This document shows positions 19,155 through 57,228 of a DNA stretch of 64,000 nucleotides, piece by piece. A model generated the notes under the pieces. The model saw only the letters and a program-made list of their open reading frames with translations. It ran no database searches and was not told the DNA's origin. Origin of the DNA: a bacterium. GTDB taxonomy: Bacteria > Patescibacteriota > Minisyncoccia > Phycocordibacterales > Phycocordibacteraceae. Every line of letters starts with the position of its first letter. Position 1 is the first letter of the stretch. The stretch covers positions 896,001 to 960,000 of the forward strand of contig JBBCGK010000001.1 of NCBI GenBank assembly GCA_037200965.1. Reading direction: 5' to 3'. The position numbers and the translations under genes were made by a program.

Positions 19155-19190
19155 CAGCACTCGCGCCATGCGCGGGTGCTGTATACTTTT
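19155..19190 (+). terminator. hairpin plus U-tract between the 18839 gene and smc
   Basis: cagcactcgcgcc / gcgcgggtgctg, 12 bp with 1 mismatch, followed by tatacttttt. Overlaps the TATACT leaderless element of smc. Confidence 0.4.
19182..19187 (+). promoter_or_regulatory. -10-like TATACT placed 6 nt before the smc ATG (leaderless arrangement)
   Basis: TATACT-ttttat-ATG(19194). No Shine-Dalgarno sequence. Confidence 0.35.
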
Positions 19191-19193
19191 TAT

Positions 19194-22100
19194 ATGCTCA
19201 AGCGGCTCGAAATCGCCGGGTTCAAATCGTTCGCACGGAAGACCGTGCTCGATTTCTCGTCCTCGGTGACGTCGATCGTGGGGCCGAATGGATCTGGGAA
19301 GTGCGTGACGGGCGATACGCTCCTTGCGCGCCGGACGGCTTCGGGGGAAGCGGAAGACGTCGCGATCAAAGACATCCGTCGCGGCGACGAGGTACTCGCG
19401 CTTGACGAGGCGACGGGCGCTTTCGTGAGCGCCCGCGTGAACGCGCTCCTCGATTCGGGCACCAAAGACGTGTGTGAGCTTGTCACGGAAAGCGGCAAGC
19501 GCATTCGTACGACCGCGGAGCACCCTTATCTCGCCGCTCCGGAGGCCCGGCCAGTTCCCGAGCGTCCGCGCATCGGCGTGTTTATTGATAACTCGAATCT
19601 CTATCATGGGGCGCGAAAGGCCGGGTGGCAGATCGATTTTGGCAAGCTCCGCGCGCTGCTTGAAGCAAGCGCCGACCTTCGCATCATGCGCTATCACGTC
19701 GCGGTTCCGGAAGCCGGGGATCCCGCGCATGAAGCCGCGCGCAAGCATCTGCGGGCGGTCGCCCCGTACGTGACGGTGCTCGAAAAGCCGCTCAAGTATA
19801 TTGCCGGAAGCAACGGATCGGTCGTAAAGAAGGGAGATATCGACATCGACCTCGCCCTGGATGTCGTGCGGCATCTGCCGCTTCTCGACGTCGCGATAAT
19901 CGTGAGCGGGGACAGCGACTATCTGGGGCTTGAGCAGTACGTGCAGCGGCAAGGGAAAGCGGCCCTATTCCTCTCATTCAAGCGGTCGATGGCGTGGGAG
20001 TTGCGCTTGAAGCCGCATATCTTTGCGGAGCGCATCCGCCCGTGGATCGAGCGCAGAGGAACGCAAAACCCCGAGCTTTCGCTCGGGGCAGTGTTGGTAG
20101 CGCCAATTATACAGGCATCGCTCAAGCGCGCAAGCCCCGGGCGCGAGACCCGTGTGGATACTATCGGTTCATGGACTCGCGTCATGCATCTTGCTATCGG
20201 TTCGCGCATCGCGACGCTCTCTGCCTCCGGAGCGCTCACGTTTGAAGCAGTTGCGTCGATATCCGTTCTTCCCGCTGAACGGGTATATGACATTGAGGTG
20301 GAAGGAGTTCATAACTTCGTGGGAAACGGTATCGTCGCGCACAACAGCAACGTTGCCGAAGCTTTCCGCTTCGCGCTCGGGGAACAGTCGATGAAGTCGA
20401 TGCGCGGGAAACGAAGCGAAGACCTCATCTTTTCGGGCTCGCACACCGCACAGCGCTCAAACCGTGCCGCGGTCGCGGTCGTTTTCGATAATTCCCGCAA
20501 GCAATTCAAGCTCGACTTTAACGAGGTGGTGATCGAGCGCGCGGTATTTCGCGACGGGACGAGCGAATACTCGATCAACGGGTCGAAAGCGCGCCTTCGC
20601 GACATCCAGGAGCTTCTTGCAGGCGCCAATATCGGCGAGACCGGGCACCACATCATCTCCCAGGGCGAGGCCGATCGGATACTCGCGGCTTCAAGCGCCG
20701 ACCGGCGCGAAATGCTTGAGGAAGCGCTCGGGCTCAAGATTTTCGAATTCAAGAAGCAGGAGAGCGAGAAGAAACTCCAGAAGACCGAGGAGAATATCGG
20801 ACAGGTGGAGGCGCTCCGGAGGGAACTCGCGCCGCACTTGAAGTTCCTCGGGAAGCAGGTCGAGAAGCTCGAACGCGCGGAGGAAATGCGGCGCGAGCTC
20901 GGAGCCGCGGCGAGGACGTACCTCGCGATCGAGGATGCCTATCTTCGGGAAGAAAAGAAGCGTGCCGAAAGCGCGAAAGTCTCCGCGGCGGAGCGCCTTG
21001 CGAAAGCGTCCGCGGAACTTGCCGCGGTCACCGACCTCACGGCAAGCGACAGCGAAGCCCTGAAGCGCTTCGAAGCCGTACGGCAGTCGGAAGCTCTTGC
21101 CGAGCGGATTACCTCCTCGCGGGCCGAACTTGCGCGCGAGCTCGGGAAGACGGAAGGTGCGCTTGAGGGAGCAAAAAGGCGAAGCGCCGCAGTCGCCCGC
21201 GACCCGTACGCGAAGATACCGCGGGAAGACCTGACGGCTCTTCGGGACGAGGTTGAGCGGCAGGCCGAAGGCGCGGGAGAAGGTGTCGAGTCGCTGCGCG
21301 CCGCACTCGCCGCGATACGCTCGGCAACGCGCGCTTTCTTCGAGCGCTTCGCGGTTTCGGGTGCCGCGTACCTTGCGGAGGAGGAGCGCGAGACGTTCGC
21401 GCTTGAGGAAGAGCAGAAAAGGCTCGTCGCGAAAGACGCGGAGCTCGCTGCCGAGCTTGAAAAAGCGCGGGCGGCGCTTGCCCGAGCCCGCGAAGAAGCC
21501 CGCGCCCGCGAAGAGGCGGGGCGCGAAAGCCAGCACCGCACGCTGCAGGTCGCGGAGGCAAAGGCTTCCGCGGAGGCGGAGACGGAACGGTTCGGCGCGC
21601 GCCTTCGCGAGCTTGCCTTCCTTGCCGAAGAGCTCCAGAGGGACACGGCCGAAGTACTCGCGCTTGCGGGTGCCGAGGCCGTCTCGTACGCGCCCCTGTC
21701 GGAGCTTCCGCGGGAAGAGCGCCGGGCGCAGGAAGACCGCAAGCGCGCGCTTGAGCGCCTCAAGATACGGCTTGAGGAAGCGGGCGGCGGCGGGGAACAA
21801 ATACGCAGCGAATACAAGGAGGTCTCGGAGCGAGAGAGTTTCCTTGCGCGGGAGCTTGAGGATCTTGCGAAGTCGGCCGCAGGGCTTCGGGAACTCATAA
21901 CCGAGCTCGATACGGAACTCGGCAAGAGTTTCGCGGAGGGGCTTCAGAAGGTTAACGCGTCGTTCGGGGAATTCTTCGCGCTCATGTTCGGGGGCGGAAG
22001 CGCCCGGCTTGTGCTTGAAGAGCCCGAAGACGATGAAGAGGAAGACGAGGAACGCGAAACAAGCACGCCACGCAGGGAAATGCGTCCGGGGATCGAGATA

Positions 22101-22439
22101 TCGGTTGCCCTCCCGAAAAAGCGCGTGCAGTCGCTCATGCAGCTTTCAGGCGGCGAGCGGGCGCTCACGTCGATCGCGCTCATCTTTGCCATGAGCCAGG
22201 TGAATCCGCCGCCGTTTTTGATACTTGACGAGACGGACGCGGCCTTGGACGAGGCCAACAGCCGCCGCTACGGCGACATGATCGAGAACCTCTCGAAGAA
22301 ATCCCAGCTTATCGTCATCACGCATAACCGCGAGACCATGAGCAGGGCGGGCATCCTCTACGGCGTGACAATGTCGGGCGACGGCGTCTCGAAGCTCCTT
22401 TCGGTCAAATTCGACGAGGCGGTTGCGGTGGCGAAGTAA
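19194..22439 (+). CDS. smc: chromosome partition protein SMC, interrupted by an in-frame intein in the Walker A motif
   Basis: MLKRLEIAGFKSFA…GPNGSGK[intein]SNVAEAFRFALGEQS…; coiled coils; hinge; C-terminal LSGGERALTSIALIFA signature and Walker B ILDETDAALD. Confidence 0.93.
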   Translation: MLKRLEIAGFKSFARKTVLDFSSSVTSIVGPNGSGKCVTGDTLLARRTASGEAEDVAIKDIRRGDEVLALDEATGAFVSARVNALLDSGTKDVCELVTESGKRIRTTAEHPYLAAPEARPVPERPRIGVFIDNSNLYHGARKAGWQIDFGKLRALLEASADLRIMRYHVAVPEAGDPAHEAARKHLRAVAPYVTVLEKPLKYIAGSNGSVVKKGDIDIDLALDVVRHLPLLDVAIIVSGDSDYLGLEQYVQRQGKAALFLSFKRSMAWELRLKPHIFAERIRPWIERRGTQNPELSLGAVLVAPIIQASLKRASPGRETRVDTIGSWTRVMHLAIGSRIATLSASGALTFEAVASISVLPAERVYDIEVEGVHNFVGNGIVAHNSNVAEAFRFALGEQSMKSMRGKRSEDLIFSGSHTAQRSNRAAVAVVFDNSRKQFKLDFNEVVIERAVFRDGTSEYSINGSKARLRDIQELLAGANIGETGHHIISQGEADRILAASSADRREMLEEALGLKIFEFKKQESEKKLQKTEENIGQVEALRRELAPHLKFLGKQVEKLERAEEMRRELGAAARTYLAIEDAYLREEKKRAESAKVSAAERLAKASAELAAVTDLTASDSEALKRFEAVRQSEALAERITSSRAELARELGKTEGALEGAKRRSAAVARDPYAKIPREDLTALRDEVERQAEGAGEGVESLRAALAAIRSATRAFFERFAVSGAAYLAEEERETFALEEEQKRLVAKDAELAAELEKARAALARAREEARAREEAGRESQHRTLQVAEAKASAEAETERFGARLRELAFLAEELQRDTAEVLALAGAEAVSYAPLSELPREERRAQEDRKRALERLKIRLEEAGGGGEQIRSEYKEVSERESFLARELEDLAKSAAGLRELITELDTELGKSFAEGLQKVNASFGEFFALMFGGGSARLVLEEPEDDEEEDEERETSTPRREMRPGIEISVALPKKRVQSLMQLSGGERALTSIALIFAMSQVNPPPFLILDETDAALDEANSRRYGDMIENLSKKSQLIVITHNRETMSRAGILYGVTMSGDGVSKLLSVKFDEAVAVAK
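19302..20345 (+). other. intein (348 aa) inserted between K and S of the SMC P-loop GPNGSGK|SN; contains an internal NYN/LabA-like nuclease domain
   Basis: Hint block A CVTGDTLL, block B TTAEHPYLA, C-terminal blocks VYDIEVEGVHNFVGNGIVAHN with +1 Ser. Internal region (about 19569-19979): RIGVFIDNSNLY…KKGDIDIDLALD…IIVSGDSDY, matching NYN/LabA acidic motifs. Confidence 0.85.
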
Positions 22440-22450
22440 TCGTCTTCTAA

Positions 22451-23332
22451 TCAACACCTTGGCACCACCTCCTTGAGTACTTGTGCCGGGGTCAGGAGAT
22501 TCAGGCCGAAATGGTGCCGCTCCCGGTTGTACCAGGGGATGTATTTCTTCAGAGCCGCATTGAACGCTTCCGGACTTCTGCGCGCATGGTCGAGGCACTC
22601 CTCCTGAAGCGTGCGGTTGAATCGCTCGATATGCGCATTGTCGTTGGGTTTCCCGATGCGGGAATACCGGTGCTTCCTCCGGATGCGCTCGACGAACCAC
22701 GCCCCGAACTCGGGACCATGGTCGCTCTGGAGCATTTCGAAGCGGAAGGACGCTCTCCGCTGCGCCTCCTCGACGAAGCGCACGGCGGTCGCGGCATCCA
22801 TGCGCGCATAGGTCTTCGCGTACGCGGTGCGGGAATGCACGTCGATGAGGGTGAAGGTATACATCCGCTTCTTCAAATCGAGCATGGTGTGAATGGTGTC
22901 GATCTGGACGAGGGAACCGGGTTTCTCCGGCAGGGGGCGGTCGACCTGTGGGTGGTATCGCTTGTACGGGCTCCTCTTCTTGAGGAGGCCCATGCGGTCA
23001 AGCGTTCGCTTGATGGTGGAGAGTGAAATCACCACCCCTTCCTCCTCCAGTATGCGCTGAATGACTTCCGCGCTTCGCTTCGACTTGAGCCGGGTATGGA
23101 AGATCTTCCAGCGGAGTTCGTCTGAGAGCTGCCGGGGATGGCGCTTCGGACGCGACGAGCGCGTCGGTATCGGGTGGTATCCGATGCGTTCGGCCCTTCG
23201 CACCCATTTCATGACGGCGGTGTGATGGTACCCGAGATGCCGCCCGATCTTGCGCGCGCTCCAGCCTTGGCGGAAGAGATCCGCCGCTTCGCGGCGGATG
23301 CGGGGCATACGGGGGTTGGTGGTGTATGGCAT
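22451..23332 (-). CDS. IS481-like DDE transposase (HTH plus rve integrase core)
   Basis: …LVQIDTIHT…DHGPEF…NDNAHIERFNRTLQEE… rve-domain motifs. ATG at 23332 immediately inside the right inverted repeat. Confidence 0.8.
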   Translation of the reverse strand: MPYTTNPRMPRIRREAADLFRQGWSARKIGRHLGYHHTAVMKWVRRAERIGYHPIPTRSSRPKRHPRQLSDELRWKIFHTRLKSKRSAEVIQRILEEEGVVISLSTIKRTLDRMGLLKKRSPYKRYHPQVDRPLPEKPGSLVQIDTIHTMLDLKKRMYTFTLIDVHSRTAYAKTYARMDAATAVRFVEEAQRRASFRFEMLQSDHGPEFGAWFVERIRRKHRYSRIGKPNDNAHIERFNRTLQEECLDHARRSPEAFNAALKKYIPWYNRERHHFGLNLLTPAQVLKEVVPRC

Positions 23333-23363
23333 GCGACTTGGCTTAGTGGTGCCAAGGTATTGA
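22451..23363 (-). mobile_element. IS481-family-like insertion sequence (about 913 bp) with 18-bp terminal inverted repeats
   Basis: Left end tcaacaccttggcaccac (22451-22468); right end gtggtgccaaggtattga (23346-23363), 17/18 complementary. No clear target-site duplication seen. Confidence 0.6.
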
Positions 23364-23439
23364 ACCATTACGAGTAATTTGACACGTTTCCTCTTATAGA
23401 GTATTGTGCGCATAACGCATAGACGAAAAGGAGATTCGA

Positions 23440-23811
23440 ATGCGTAGCACATTCAAAGCGATAGTGGCAGCCGCGCTCATGCTTGCGCCTGTTGCTGCCG
23501 GGGCGGAGCCGGATTTCGCATATAACGAGAGAAGCCCGAGCGAGAAATGGCGAGACGAACACATCACCTTCGCCTACTTCGGGCGGGAAATCAAAGGCAC
23601 CGACTGGCTCGTCATCGGCCTCCATCCCGGAGACCGGAAGGTAACCGTCTCGCACCGGCATAAGATCTATCGCGACTGGGGCTATGCGGAAGTGTTTTCG
23701 CTATCAGTAGGCGACTCAATCTTCCTCGAGCCGTCTACTGCATATCCATTTGGTCAAAAGGCGAAGCTCGTAGAGTTCGATGGCTACACCAGCATGTTCT
23801 GGATCCATTGA
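23440..23811 (+). CDS. small secreted hypothetical protein (signal peptide)
   Basis: aaggag Shine-Dalgarno sequence 6 nt upstream. N-terminus MRSTFKAIVAAALMLAPVAAGAEPD. Confidence 0.55.
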   Translation: MRSTFKAIVAAALMLAPVAAGAEPDFAYNERSPSEKWRDEHITFAYFGREIKGTDWLVIGLHPGDRKVTVSHRHKIYRDWGYAEVFSLSVGDSIFLEPSTAYPFGQKAKLVEFDGYTSMFWIH

Positions 23812-23830
23812 GTTTCACCCCGTGAAGGGA

Positions 23831-23865
23831 GGTGCCCGGCACAGAAGGCCGGGCACTTTTCATTT
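23831..23865 (+). terminator. rho-independent terminator
   Basis: gtgcccggc / gccgggcac stem, loop acagaag, followed by ttttcatttt. Confidence 0.6.
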
Positions 23866-24105
23866 TGCGAGGCGGTCTCTTTCCTCGCGCTGCAGGCGGA
23901 AACGCTCCTTGCAGCTTTCGCAGCCTTCCGGTCCCTGCATCCCGAATATATGTCCGTACGCTTCTTCGAGCGCTGTTTCAAGAATGTCGCGTGGAAACTC
24001 GTCGCAGCACATAACGGTAGCGATCAGTATGCCCATATCGGGCTTAAGTTCCGGATGGGATTCGGCAAACGCTACGCGTCCAAGACGCCTGTCTTCCGGT
24101 GTCAT
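23860..24105 (-). CDS. hypothetical small protein (81 aa)
   Basis: ORF only; Cys-containing; no family recognised. Confidence 0.3.
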   Translation of the reverse strand: MTPEDRRLGRVAFAESHPELKPDMGILIATVMCCDEFPRDILETALEEAYGHIFGMQGPEGCESCKERFRLQREERDRLAK

Positions 24106-24207
24106 ATTGTATTTCTCCTTCAGTTCCTTACTCTATAACGCCGACAAAGAGACCTAAGATGTCATGTCGTTCATCGTTCCAACAGGAGCGCATGTTATAC
24201 TTCCTCC

Positions 24208-24423
24208 ATGCTTACGGCCGTATACAAGAAAGTCAGGAGCGGATACGTTGCCTGGATCGAGGAGGTGCCTGGCGTGCTGACGCAGGGAAAGTCGCGCGTC
24301 GAGGCGCGCGCGAATCTTGCTGATGCGCTTCGTGAATTCATCGCGGCGCGGCGTGACGCTACACGACGAAGCTCCGTACGTGGAAGCGCTCCCCTCAAGC
24401 GCGAGCGCATGGCGCTCGCATAG
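24208..24423 (+). CDS. hicB: HicB-family antitoxin
   Basis: …YVAWIEEVPGVLTQGKSRVEARANLADALREFI… HicB/UPF0150 pattern. TATACT-N6-ATG leaderless start. Confidence 0.6.
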   Translation: MLTAVYKKVRSGYVAWIEEVPGVLTQGKSRVEARANLADALREFIAARRDATRRSSVRGSAPLKRERMALA

Positions 24424-24432
24424 CTTTCCCCG

Positions 24433-24627
24433 ATGAAGCGCCGGGACCTGGAGCGGCATCTTTATGCGCAAGGTTGCCGTCTTGTACGGGAGGGCGCGAA
24501 GCATTCCGTATTTGAGAATCCTCCGCTTGGCGCGATGGCGACGGTACCGCGGCACGCCGAAGTCGACCCGTATCTCGCGCGAAAAATCTGCAAGGAGCTC
24601 GGCATTAAGGCACCACAAGGGCGTTAA
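24433..24627 (+). CDS. hicA: HicA-family mRNA interferase toxin
   Basis: MKRRDLERHLYAQGCRLVREGAKHSVFENP…TVPRHAEVDPYLARKICKELGI matches the HicA/YcfA fold consensus. Confidence 0.7.
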   Translation: MKRRDLERHLYAQGCRLVREGAKHSVFENPPLGAMATVPRHAEVDPYLARKICKELGIKAPQGR

Positions 24628-24628
24628 T

Positions 24629-26602
24629 TTATTTCTTCTCCGAGAGCGTGAAATCGAGCTCGCGCTCCGGAATACGCGCGGCAAGGAGCTTCACGCGCAC
24701 CGGGTCGCCGAGCGTATAGCTTTTCTTGAGCCGATTGCCGATAAGGCGGTAGCGGGCCTGGTCGAAGGTGTAATAGTCGTCGCCGATCGAGGAGAGTCGG
24801 ATCATGCCTTCCGCGTGCGTTTCCGTAAGTTCGACGTACATCCCGCGCTCGGTGACGCCCGAGATGACGGCGTCGAATTCCTGTCCGATCTTGTCCGCCA
24901 TGAACTCGACGAGCTTCATCTTGATCGAGTCGCGCTCGGCTTCCGTCGCCGATATTTCGCGCTCGTTGCAGTGGATCGCCATCTCCTCGAGATGATCCAT
25001 ATCCTCGCGGTCGAGCTCATCCCCGTTCTCATAGTGCTTGAGGATACGATGCGTGATCAGGTCGGGATAACGGCGGATGGGGGAGGTGAAATGGGTATAG
25101 GAATCGAACGCGAGCCCGAAGTGTCCGATGTTTTTGGTCGCGTACGCGGCCCTCGCCATGGAGCGCAAGCTCGCGGTCTTTATGAGGTATTCCTCCGGCG
25201 TTCCCGTGACCTGCGAGAGAAGCGCGTTGATATCGGTTCCTTTGACTTTCCCCGCCTGGTTCTTGAGCTCGTACCCGAGCGCATGGAGGAACTGCGCGAG
25301 ATTCTCGATGCGGTCCATATCCGGCGCGTCGTGCACGCGATATATCTGCGAGAGCCTGTCGCCCTTTTTCTTCGATGTCTCGGCAAGATGCTCGGCCACG
25401 GCCACGTTCGCAAGGAGCATGAAGTCCTCGATGAGCATGTTGGTATCGCGCCGCTCTTTGAGATGCACGGCGACCGGCTTCCCGCTCCCGTCGAGCTCGA
25501 TCTTCACTTCCGCGGTATCGAAGGCGATGGCGCCGTTGTCGGTCCGGCGCTTCCTGAGCTTGTCGGCAAGGCGCTTTAGGGTATTGAGTTCCGCAAGCAT
25601 GGGACCGTTCTGGGTATCAAGCACCTCCTGGGCGCCTTCGTAGGCGAAGCGCTTGTCGGAGTGGATGACGGTTTCGCCGAACCATCGTTCAAGGACGTTC
25701 GCGTCGCTGTCGAGCACGAAGACCGCGGAAACGGCGAGGCGGTCTATGTGTTCATTCAGGGAGCACAGGTTGTTTGAAAGCACGTGCGGAAGCATAGGAA
25801 TAGTGCGGTCAACAAGATAGACCGAAGTCGCGCGGTGCCTTGCCTCGCGGTCGAAGTCGGTGCCTGGCCGTACGAAATACGAAACGTCGGCGATATGAAT
25901 GCCGACCTCGGTCTTTCCGTCCCCGAGGTCCCTGACCGAAAGCGCGTCGTCGAAGTCCTTGGCGTCCGCGGGGTCTATGGTAAAAGTCGGGGTGCCGCGG
26001 AAGTCCCGGCGCTTGGTTTCTCCCCGTGCGGCCTTTGCCGCTTCTTCGTCGATCATCGCCTGTCCGGTCGCCTCGAGCTTCTCCGCTTCTTTGATCACCC
26101 CCGGAGGGAATTCGCTGTGGAAGCCCTGGGAGAGCGCCAAGGCGCGCATCTCGGTCTCGTGGACGCCTGCGGGCCCGATGATCTCCTCAAGGCGGGCGGA
26201 AGGGAACTGCTGGCCCTTGTCCCAGCCCGTGAGGCGGACGAGCACTTTGTTTCCGAGCGGAAGATTGTCGCCCGTGACGATAAAGGGCGTGTACATGCGC
26301 TTCCAGTCGGGCGCAAGGAGCGTCTCCCCGCGCTCGCCTTTGATGAGCGTCCCGACGAAATGCTCCCGGTTTCGCTTCACTATCTCAAGTACCTTTGCGG
26401 CTTTCCGGTTATCGACGATGCCCGCGGGCGCGATCTTGACCGTATCGCCGTGGAAAGCGCCCATGATCCACTCGCGGGGAATCATGAGATCCTCCTGTTT
26501 ATCTTTCGAACTTTTAGAGACGCCTGGGTCCAGGCTGAAGAAACCGATTCCCCTGCCGGTGACGGAAATGATTCCCTCGTATGATTTTTCCTCGGGCTTC
26601 AA
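24629..26602 (-). CDS. rnr: ribonuclease R (RNase II family exoribonuclease)
   Basis: RNB-domain motifs (…TIDPADAKDFDDALSV…), N-terminal cold-shock-like region and C-terminal S1 domain. Start appears to be TTG at 26602. Confidence 0.88.
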   Translation of the reverse strand: MKPEEKSYEGIISVTGRGIGFFSLDPGVSKSSKDKQEDLMIPREWIMGAFHGDTVKIAPAGIVDNRKAAKVLEIVKRNREHFVGTLIKGERGETLLAPDWKRMYTPFIVTGDNLPLGNKVLVRLTGWDKGQQFPSARLEEIIGPAGVHETEMRALALSQGFHSEFPPGVIKEAEKLEATGQAMIDEEAAKAARGETKRRDFRGTPTFTIDPADAKDFDDALSVRDLGDGKTEVGIHIADVSYFVRPGTDFDREARHRATSVYLVDRTIPMLPHVLSNNLCSLNEHIDRLAVSAVFVLDSDANVLERWFGETVIHSDKRFAYEGAQEVLDTQNGPMLAELNTLKRLADKLRKRRTDNGAIAFDTAEVKIELDGSGKPVAVHLKERRDTNMLIEDFMLLANVAVAEHLAETSKKKGDRLSQIYRVHDAPDMDRIENLAQFLHALGYELKNQAGKVKGTDINALLSQVTGTPEEYLIKTASLRSMARAAYATKNIGHFGLAFDSYTHFTSPIRRYPDLITHRILKHYENGDELDREDMDHLEEMAIHCNEREISATEAERDSIKMKLVEFMADKIGQEFDAVISGVTERGMYVELTETHAEGMIRLSSIGDDYYTFDQARYRLIGNRLKKSYTLGDPVRVKLLAARIPERELDFTLSEKK

Positions 26603-55509: not shown

Positions 55510-57228
55510 CTAGAAGCCGCCGAAGCCCGCGCGCCGCGTCGCCCCCGAGGTTGCCGTGGTTTTCGCCGTCCCGTTGTTCGCGCGCACCACGACCTGGTCG
55601 CCTTCGCCAAGGCCCGAAAGAATCTGCGTGCTGGTATCGTCCGAGATGCCCGTTTCGACGGGAACGTTCTTCGGCGCCGCCGGCGAGGGAGTGCCCGCGC
55701 TTCCGGTATTCGCTTCAGCGAGCGGGGGATCGAATACCTGCACGTAGCTTGCGCCGTTCATAGTCTTTATGGCGCCCGAAGGCACCGAAAGCGCGTTTGG
55801 CGCGGTCGCGGTGATGATTGAGGCCGAGACGGTCATGCCCGGCTTCACGCGCTCGTCCCCCGCGTCGAGGCTTATGGTCACGCTATACGTCACGACGCCC
55901 TGGGAGACCGTGCCGACCGCGTCGATGCCGCTCACGGTACCCGTGAGCATGAGACCGTCTATCGCATCGAACGTGAGTGTCGCTTTTTGTCCGAGTTTAA
56001 TCTTCGCTGCGTCGACCTCGTCAAGCGAAAGTACGGCGCTCTTTTCCTCGCCGATCATCGTGACGGCCGGGCTCCCTGCGGCGGTGCCCACCGTCGCGTC
56101 GAGCGCCGATACCGTCCCGGCGAAGGGCGCATAGAGGTAATAGTCCGCGAGGTTGTCCTTCGCGTCCTGCAGGGCGTTTTTCGCTTTCGTAAGCGAGAGT
56201 TCCGCCGACCGCACGGCAAGCGGTGTGCCGCTTCCGGAGAGCGTCGCGGTCGCGTTCTGAAGCGTCGTCAGCGCGGAAAGGGAGCTCGCGCTGTCGCCCT
56301 GGGCCTTGCCCGCATACGCGGCGGCCGAGGTGATCTGAGCGGCAAGACCCGCGGGAGGCGTAAGCAGGTTATGAGCGTCGACGGTCGACTGCACCAGGTT
56401 GAGAAACGCGAGCGTATCCTTGGCCGCCTGGTTCGCCGCTGAAGTGGCCTCGTTCGTGTGCTCCAGGAGCGCAAGAATGTCTTCGGCCGAAGAGTCGCGG
56501 TTCGCGGTCTGATACAGGCTGAAATACTTGTCATAAAGGTTTTTCGCTGCCCGGTATGAAGCCTCGGCCTTGTCGGCAGCCGCGCGCGCGGCAGGTTCGT
56601 TCTCTTCGATGAGATCTTCGTATGCGTTCGCATTCGTCCTGCCCCCGTATGTTGCCGTCCGTTCGTGGAGAATAGTATCGAGTCCGGAAAGGATGCCCGG
56701 CAGGTCGCTCCACGCCGTTGCGGCGCTATCGAAGCCGCTCCCGCGCGCGCTCGTGATGCTGTTCCCCGACGAGCTTATGGCCTGCTGGTATGAAATCTCG
56801 GCGCTCGCAAGGTTTGCCCCGGCGTCCCGTACCGACTTCTCCGCGGAGGTCGTATCGAGTTTCAGAAGGAGGGTTCCGGCCCCGACCTTCTGGCCCGCTT
56901 TAACTCCGACGTATGTAACGGTGCCCGAGCCCTCGGGCTTGAGCGCCGCTTCGGTCGTCGCGGATACTTGGCCGCTTCCGGTGACGGAAGAAACGATCGT
57001 CGACACCTTCGCATTCGCGGTCACATATGTCGTCGGAGCAGCGTTCGTCGCGAGCGCCGAATAGGCCCAATAGCCTGCGGCAAGAACCGCGATGATAATG
57101 ATTCCTGTGATGGCGGTATGAGCCTTGGTATACGCAAGGGCGCGGGAGGGAAGCGAACGGGCGGAACCTGCGAGCGTGTCTATGGGCATGGCCGGGATAT
57201 ATGAGGATATTCCCTTAGTACGCGCCAC
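55510..57228 (-). CDS. HlyD/MacA-family periplasmic adaptor (membrane fusion protein)
   Basis: N-terminal TM helix, long coiled-coil hairpin, barrel-sandwich and beta-barrel regions. Confidence 0.7.
   Translation of the reverse strand: MARTKGISSYIPAMPIDTLAGSARSLPSRALAYTKAHTAITGIIIIAVLAAGYWAYSALATNAAPTTYVTANAKVSTIVSSVTGSGQVSATTEAALKPEGSGTVTYVGVKAGQKVGAGTLLLKLDTTSAEKSVRDAGANLASAEISYQQAISSSGNSITSARGSGFDSAATAWSDLPGILSGLDTILHERTATYGGRTNANAYEDLIEENEPAARAAADKAEASYRAAKNLYDKYFSLYQTANRDSSAEDILALLEHTNEATSAANQAAKDTLAFLNLVQSTVDAHNLLTPPAGLAAQITSAAAYAGKAQGDSASSLSALTTLQNATATLSGSGTPLAVRSAELSLTKAKNALQDAKDNLADYYLYAPFAGTVSALDATVGTAAGSPAVTMIGEEKSAVLSLDEVDAAKIKLGQKATLTFDAIDGLMLTGTVSGIDAVGTVSQGVVTYSVTISLDAGDERVKPGMTVSASIITATAPNALSVPSGAIKTMNGASYVQVFDPPLAEANTGSAGTPSPAAPKNVPVETGISDDTSTQILSGLGEGDQVVVRANNGTAKTTATSGATRRAGFGGF

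Follow-up and report, generated by a model that had tools for sequence, protein, structure and literature searches.

A NYN/LabA-like domain nested in an intein of a Patescibacteria SMC protein, candidate for a so far undescribed class of nuclease in intein mobility

An intein in the Walker-A loop of SMC

We examined a 64,000-nucleotide stretch of a Phycocordibacteraceae genome (Patescibacteriota; GenBank assembly GCA_037200965.1, contig JBBCGK010000001.1, positions 896,001 to 960,000 of the forward strand), hereafter the window, in which the smc gene is interrupted by an intein that carries a NYN domain. The smc gene occupies 19194..22439 on the + strand, as do all of its parts given below, and from the ATG at 19194 encodes a precursor of 1081 amino acids that would give a mature SMC of 733 amino acids once spliced. 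The open reading frame (19176/19194..22439) is unbroken across the insert. The N-extein (19194..19301; 36 amino acids) ends with the Walker A motif GPNGSGK, the class-1 intein (19302..20345; 348 amino acids) runs from Cys1 to a terminal His-Asn, and the C-extein (20346..22439) begins with Ser+1 (SNVAEAFRFALGEQS...). At the left junction the AAG codon for the lysine of GPNGSGK ends at 19301 and TGC, encoding Cys1, occupies 19302-19304. At the right junction the last codons of the intein are CAC-AAC (His-Asn), up to 20345, and the next is AGC (Ser+1). The insert is exactly 1044 nucleotides or 348 codons long and in frame, and lies within the P-loop exactly where the original prediction, made from the DNA letters, had placed it.

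The host protein was identified as SMC by the Pfam family SMC_N (PF02463; 217 bits, E=2.8e-64). It also matched the NCBIfam model TIGR02168 SMC_prok_B (E=1.5e-153), with a score of 513 bits that is under the 567-bit cutoff because the coiled coil of this SMC is short. Upon removal of the insert both halves of the SMC_N head, Walker A, Walker B and the signature motif are all present. The intein-excised protein (733 amino acids) is 84% identical over its full length to its closest homologue, the intein-less P0026, which bears out the expectation that excision restores an SMC. SMC orthologues of ~735 amino acids number in the thousands in the Candidate Phyla Radiation (CPR), and 119 of the 120 best SMC homologues of the excised protein are 714-775 amino acids long, too short to hold an intein. 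The remaining one of the 120, P0029 with 942 amino acids, was considered as a carrier of a mini-intein and rejected, as it contains internal duplications from mis-assembly instead.

The contig that encodes P0026 (L045) is syntenic with the window over dnaE, rnhB, nusB-NUDIX, rnc, smc, rnr, rpsP, trmD, rpoB and rpoC, and provides the intein-free allele that it had been proposed to look for. By blastn, L045 7980-8111, which covers the N-extein, corresponds to window 19174-19304, and L045 8106-10199, which covers the C-extein at 75% nucleotide identity, corresponds to window 20343-22439. The 30 residues surrounding the junction are identical in the two contigs, as are 75 of the 90 nucleotides that encode them. 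The intein-less site reads ...GGGCCGAATGGATCTGGGAAG|AGCAACGTTGCCGAAGCT..., with GGATCTGGGAAG|AGCAACGTTGCC at its centre. Set against the empty site in L045, the intein amounts to an exact insertion of 1044 bp. Since the closest SMC orthologues are without the intein, it is not anciently fixed in this gene. The base composition of the intein (GC 0.613, GC3 0.70) is near that of the extein (GC 0.631, GC3 0.76).

We considered if the insert could instead be an artefact of assembly, a frameshift or a chimeric contig. Nothing specific to this locus speaks for an artefact, and the duplication in P0029 shows that mis-assembly exists in such data. In contrast, the insert keeps the reading frame and is bounded exactly by Cys1 and HN|S, has the fold of an intein and a composition resembling that of the host gene, and NYN-inteins are present at the identical SMC site on independent contigs (L047, L050, L055). 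We therefore regard an artefact as extremely improbable.

The Hint lobes and the nested NYN domain

The two lobes of the Hint domain flank a central insertion. The N-lobe (19302..19547; residues 1-82 of the intein) contains block A, CVTGDTLL, and block B, RTTAEHPYL, with Thr71 and His74. The C-lobe (20154..20345; residues 285-348) contains the beta-hairpin SWTRVMHLAIGSRIATL and blocks F/G, VYDIEVEGVHNFVGNGIVAHN. The insert matched Pfam Intein_splicing (E=1.2e-16, 61.3 bits, cutoff 35.8; best stretch in the C-lobe 309-348) as well as the NCBIfam models intein_Cterm (3.1e-09, residues 328-348) and intein_Nterm (5.1e-05). An AF2 model of the intein (pLDDT 85.8) has the Hint fold. The residues for class-1 splicing are complete: Cys1, Thr71/His74 of block B, Asp330/His337 of block F, His347-Asn348 and Ser+1, with the C-end reading VYDIEVEGVHNFVGNGIVAHN|S. 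Thus the Hint blocks and the +1 serine of the original prediction are present as quoted. With its catalytic residues intact, and in a position where it would disrupt the P-loop of a conserved SMC unless removed, the element is inferred to be a splicing-competent class-1 intein between the Lys and Ser of the Walker-A loop.

We found that the intein does not belong with the bacterial intein-like or PT-HINT domains, as it scored 18.2 bits against the PT-HINT profile, below the Pfam cutoff of 27.7 bits. It is also unlike the PT-HINT layout in that a +1 serine is present and the nuclease domain is nested rather than C-terminal.

The usual nested nuclease of inteins is a LAGLIDADG or HNH homing endonuclease, as in the bifunctional inteins PI-SceI, PI-PfuI and PI-PkoII, which carry a nested LAGLIDADG domain. 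In the window intein the canonical slot for a nested endonuclease, between block B and block F, is occupied by a NYN/LabA-like nuclease domain (19563..20006, + strand; residues 88-235). This domain matched Pfam NYN (PF01936) with E=2.9e-16 and 60.7 bits (cutoff 24.2) over residues 90-235 of the intein, and in the predicted model it adopts a PIN-like alpha/beta fold resembling 2qip, with pLDDT >90 across most of residues 90-250. Both results agree with the original assignment of the acidic motifs to a NYN/LabA domain. No LAGLIDADG, HNH or GIY-YIG domain was matched in the insert with Pfam even at E<=1, and at the same threshold none of the six known homing-endonuclease families was matched. Nothing that might have overturned the original prediction was found, whether a missing NYN match or fold, a cryptic LAGLIDADG or HNH motif, Hint blocks that fail to align, or a frameshift or assembly error.

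The core residues of the NYN domain are D96 (19587-19589), N99, K177, D181 (19842-19844), G203, D204 (19911-19913) and D206 (19917-19919). We found these seven residues invariant in 49/49 nested and 21/21 free-standing copies (70/70), each from a different 50%-identity cluster, in a set that is biased against decayed copies because it was picked by detectable NYN similarity. The domain is followed by a helical C-terminal extension (20007..20132, + strand; residues 236-277; SMAWELRLK...TQNPELSLGAVLVAPIIQASL) that is common to free-standing NYN proteins. The model places helices at 242-249 and 259-277 of this extension, and its MAWEL and TxNPxLSxGA motifs are conserved in P0004-P0007 by alignment. 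The module with its tail has a pI of 9.7. Judged from these residues, the nested NYN domain is predicted to be a catalytically intact, LabA-type (PIN-like) nuclease.

Homing endonucleases have been sorted into six structural families, LAGLIDADG, HNH, His-Cys box, GIY-YIG, PD-(D/E)xK and EDxHD/Vsr-like, none of which is PIN-like (PMC3384342). The NYN domain falls outside all six. LabA-type NYN proteins form the group NYN.COG1432, in which nuclease function has been studied in no member and whose function is unknown (Matelska et al. 2017, PMC5499597). This group, with its LabA/VPA0982-type proteins (PF01936), offers no mechanistic precedent for the domain described here, which differs from these proteins in lying inside a Hint domain and in having the conserved helical C-terminal extension. 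In the same classification of the PIN superfamily the words intein, Hint and homing occur zero times (PMC5499597), and the main text of a polymorphic-toxin paper is without NYN or intein. Full-text searches, with subscription-only literature outside the scope, turned up no paper that connects inteins to NYN, LabA or PIN-like domains and none on inteins of CPR/Patescibacteria or on an SMC intein. This is in line with the earlier remark that no NYN-type intein endonuclease had been described. What is new here is the nested nuclease family, in an otherwise known kind of element, an intein.

Relatives at the SMC site, in giant repeat proteins and at split loci

A metagenome scan with a DNA pattern for GPNGSGK|CVTGDT returned 13 loci. 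Two further alleles of NYN-inteins are present at the SMC P-loop site, one in L047 and one in L050, which is the same as L055 and as the full-length protein P0243. The extein of P0243 is 50% identical to that of the window and its intein 30%. The same site, GPNGSGK|C, also holds inteins with LAGLIDADG_3 (~548 amino acids, Pfam 1.2e-14) in L046/L054, L049, L053 and L056, and a mini-intein of 219 amino acids in L051. L058 is a CPR SMC whose N-extein is near-identical to that of the window and whose intein start resembles the LAGLIDADG lineage. The presence of LAGLIDADG_3 and NYN inteins at one SMC site indicates that NYN fills the structural slot of LAGLIDADG. The window intein differs from the LAGLIDADG inteins, including those of L046, L049 and L053, in nesting a PIN-like NYN/LabA domain, whose active site is DxxN...KxDxD...SGDSD, in place of a LAGLIDADG fold, and its cleavage of DNA is putative.

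In a neighbour-joining tree with 100 bootstraps the three SMC NYN-inteins grouped together in 0/100 replicates, while the window intein grouped with an intein from a repeat protein, P0149 (51.5% identity), in 75/100. This distance tree suggests that inteins of this kind entered SMC several times from the pool in repeat proteins.

Two other loci, L048 and L052, encode a different P-loop ATPase, probably of phage or plasmid origin, with an intein bearing LAGLIDADG-like motifs at the equivalent Walker-A position (GPNGCGK|CVTGDTYVIG...).

To describe the wider family, 1.84 billion cluster representatives were scanned exhaustively with HMMER at E<=1e-3, which gave 2997 matches. The best 150 of these were dissected with separate Hint-N, NYN and Hint-C queries and contained 55 NYN-inteins in 54 proteins. 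All of the NYN-inteins among the best 150 but one, P0243, are in giant repeat or tail-fibre-like proteins of up to 5631 amino acids, which have no Pfam domain save occasional Peptidase_S74 and surface-Ig domains. The insertion site in these proteins is a repeated motif, ...KLHVxGQ|C...AHN|TY(I/L)xGNxGIGTT, and as many as five inteins from the Hint clade of the window intein can share one giant protein (for example P0148, P0146, P0150 and P0186; also L010 and L013). NYN-inteins are only 30-50% identical to one another, a divergence that would saturate synonymous sites. Among GTDB species-representative CPR genomes we found 17 nested copies, 2 split loci and ~20 free-standing NYN genes, with the nested copies in Saccharibacteria, Sungiibacteriota, Taylorbacteria, Giovannonibacteria and others. 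A word-indexed search found further NYN-inteins in metagenome-assembled genomes of Patescibacteria, together with free-standing NYN proteins of ~210 amino acids that match the nested module, C-terminal tail included, at 47-50% identity. We conclude that the window element belongs to a large CPR-specific intein clade, found mostly at a repeated motif in giant tail-fibre-like proteins. The finding thus extends beyond one element to a family of considerable size in Patescibacteria, whose hosts are mostly repeat proteins with no housekeeping role. Some members already carry the label 'NYN domain-containing protein' in database records; the sequences are thus public yet apparently without interpretation.

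It is unusual for canonical inteins to reside in surface proteins that are repetitive and non-conserved, and we found no description of such. The wider clade resembles the bacterial intein-like (BIL) and pretoxin-HINT domains in that it resides in giant variable surface proteins, sometimes in several copies per protein, and is associated with nucleases. It is unlike them in its canonical termini (Cys1, HN and +1 Ser/Thr) and in that the nuclease is nested in Hint and not C-terminal.

The NYN domain is nested at two points relative to the Hint beta-hairpin (W..V..L..GD.IAV). It lies before the hairpin in the window intein, in L047 (read from sequence) and in most others, and after the hairpin in P0243 and about ten others. 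This implies that NYN became nested at least twice or that a rearrangement took place.

Inteins of the same Hint clade that are without NYN were also inspected. With HMM searches run with filters off no decayed NYN remnants were detected in these inteins; two divergent intact NYN domains were found, in P0010 and P0213. The lack of remnants means that a decay series of the homing cycle is not demonstrated. In eight non-NYN inserts of this clade Pfam showed no LAGLIDADG or HNH and no recognisable nuclease domain. The largest group of non-NYN inserts (P0206, P0018, P0225, P0175 and others; 19 representatives) is ~200 amino acids long with the motifs FRFEVDQSVRIEE ... IIDVEYLGYEK. It has no match in Pfam and may be another intein-nested domain, possibly a nuclease.

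At three independent loci (L003/L022, L019, L059) the intein is split. A host gene ends in IntN (...Q|CVTGDTKLRRRR...GNHPYLV...stop) and is followed by a separate gene for a NYN protein of 210-226 amino acids. Downstream, an IntC gene (M...VYDIEVEGTHNFVG(D/N)DIFAHN|TYV...) is fused to the remainder of the surface protein, with Thr as the +1 residue. A conserved cassette between the halves (L019 1254-4460; L003 576-3651; L059 618-3587) contains the NYN gene, an open reading frame of ~65 amino acids that is missing in L059, a PemK/MazF-like gene, a gene for a protein of 420-470 amino acids with a Zn-ribbon and a PDDEXK_1-like domain, and a gene for a protein of ~160 amino acids that has no Pfam match. 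The PDDEXK_1-like match is weak (Pfam E 1.9e-4, at threshold).

A related arrangement is that of the 'fractured genes', in which split inteins surround a free-standing gene for a Vsr-like (EDxHD) endonuclease, and which served as the basis for predicting a Vsr-like homing family (Dassa et al. 2009, PMC2677866). As in fractured genes, the host gene ends in IntN, a nuclease gene follows, and then IntC with its +1 nucleophile (L003/L022, L019, L059), and the same nuclease family is also found nested in contiguous inteins and standing alone. Unlike in fractured genes, the nuclease belongs to NYN and not to the Vsr-like family, giant tail-fibre or surface proteins of CPR serve as hosts in place of phage DNA-metabolism enzymes, and the gap in addition holds PemK-like, Zn-ribbon/PDDEXK-like and ~160-amino-acid genes. 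The window element itself is contiguous and not split.

Free-standing NYN genes (L001 6001-9528; L060-L062) have no Hint nearby and adjoin genes for Laminin_G_3/CBM surface proteins. Genes for an IS200/605 Y1 transposase and for a four-helix bundle of the 23S_rRNA_IVP/bAvd-like kind are also among their neighbours. Gene order is shared between L001 and the split locus L003, which both lie upstream of gap and rpiB. This synteny suggests that the NYN gene can outlast the loss of the Hint halves.

Mobility nuclease or other payload

The original prediction had left two roles for the NYN domain, that of a homing nuclease and that of a captured non-homing function. The comparative evidence leans toward a mobility nuclease. 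NYN-inteins show a sporadic phyletic distribution, multiple target genes and both free-standing and split forms, which are hallmarks of homing elements, and the occurrence of NYN genes alone and between split-intein halves matches the life-style of known homing-endonuclease genes. In the mechanism we envisage, the SMC precursor would be translated and the Hint domain would excise itself and ligate GPNGSGK to SNVAEAF, restoring the ATPase. The freed intein would then cut intein-less target DNA through its NYN domain, and repair would copy the intein in. By such homing the clade could have entered the SMC P-loop several times from inteins of repeat proteins. Splicing, DNA as the substrate and site specificity are each presumed in this scheme.

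Several points weigh against a homing nuclease. At the split loci the PDDEXK-like protein and the PemK/MazF-like RNase of the cassette mean that NYN is not the sole candidate nuclease. The NYN fold has no obvious module for reading out a long sequence, and the invariance of the core residues carries the selection bias given above. Within repeat proteins, ordinary recombination could spread the inteins with no need of a nuclease. Finally, a polybasic loop (RRRRRK..., at least 5 Arg/Lys) that directly follows block A in 33 of 34 other NYN-inteins is reduced in the window copy, which has only 2 basic residues in this position (19323-19367; residues 8-22). This reduction could reflect a changed target or a weakened contact with nucleic acid. 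Given the other candidate nucleases at split loci and the recombination among repeats, we hold the chances that NYN is the mobility nuclease of the intein, which is our preferred reading, to be about even. The broader proposal is that LabA-type NYN constitutes a seventh structural family of homing endonucleases, which drives intein mobility in Patescibacteria, has repeatedly invaded the SMC Walker-A site, has colonised a repeat motif of giant surface proteins in multiple copies and cycles between free-standing, split and nested forms. We put this forward a little more tentatively, at somewhat short of an even chance.

The loss of the polybasic loop found in 33 of 34 relatives also fits a view of the NYN domain as a relic, non-catalytic or in decay, that might for example act as a spacer in the structure or bind nucleic acid, with the intein as a fixed, immobile passenger. 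The GC and GC3 values of the intein are near those of the extein and suggest long residence, and the sampled non-NYN inserts of the same Hint clade show no recognisable nuclease domain in Pfam. However, the window copy retains all seven core NYN residues, which do not vary among the 49 nested copies, the model folds the domain with confidence over most of residues 90-250, and the closest SMC orthologues have no intein. We consider a relic unlikely.

A more serious competitor is that the NYN domain is an RNase payload, serving as a toxin or in addiction, defence or RNA processing. The intein would then spread by horizontal gene transfer and by homologous recombination, either between repeats or between inteins that already occupy the same site and have similar Hint termini. 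To our knowledge, the characterised relatives of NYN are RNases. An RNase payload fits less well with the precise, sporadic insertion into a housekeeping P-loop and the apparently independent entries, which are the classic signature of nuclease-driven homing, nor does it account readily for NYN in the exact slot that LAGLIDADG takes in same-site inteins, or for a triad of free-standing, nested and split forms that mirrors known homing-endonuclease genes. In addition, an RNase freed at every translation of SMC would come at a cost unless an immunity factor were present, and no such factor was seen adjoining smc. We therefore view an RNase payload as a possible explanation, with a probability well under one half. 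If NYN were an RNase, this would be an intein with a non-homing payload, which would likewise be unusual.

If the NYN domain is a mobility nuclease, it possibly represents an undescribed class that is common in Patescibacteria. A NYN domain that cuts DNA site-specifically would be a new nuclease scaffold among homing endonucleases, with possible use in genome engineering. To the extent of our searches, it would also give the large LabA/COG1432 NYN group its first well-grounded proposal of a biochemical function, and it would reveal the agent of mobility for an intein family that is very abundant in the Candidate Phyla Radiation. In either case direct tests are possible, since the target site is given by the syntenic empty allele. 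The natural split forms may serve as new trans-splicing pairs.

The window was also inspected for a second intein or NYN gene. A weak tblastn match at 56902-57015 was rejected, as the open reading frame that holds it (56570-57064) has no Pfam family, leaving no second copy in the window. Directly downstream of the intein-bearing smc, ~2.2 kb (22440-24650) separate smc from rnr and are missing in L045, where the two genes are ~45 bp apart. Within this segment an open reading frame of 333 amino acids on the - strand (22451-23452) reads, by its sequence, like an rve-type integrase or IS transposase, and the segment looks like a second mobile insertion adjoining smc.

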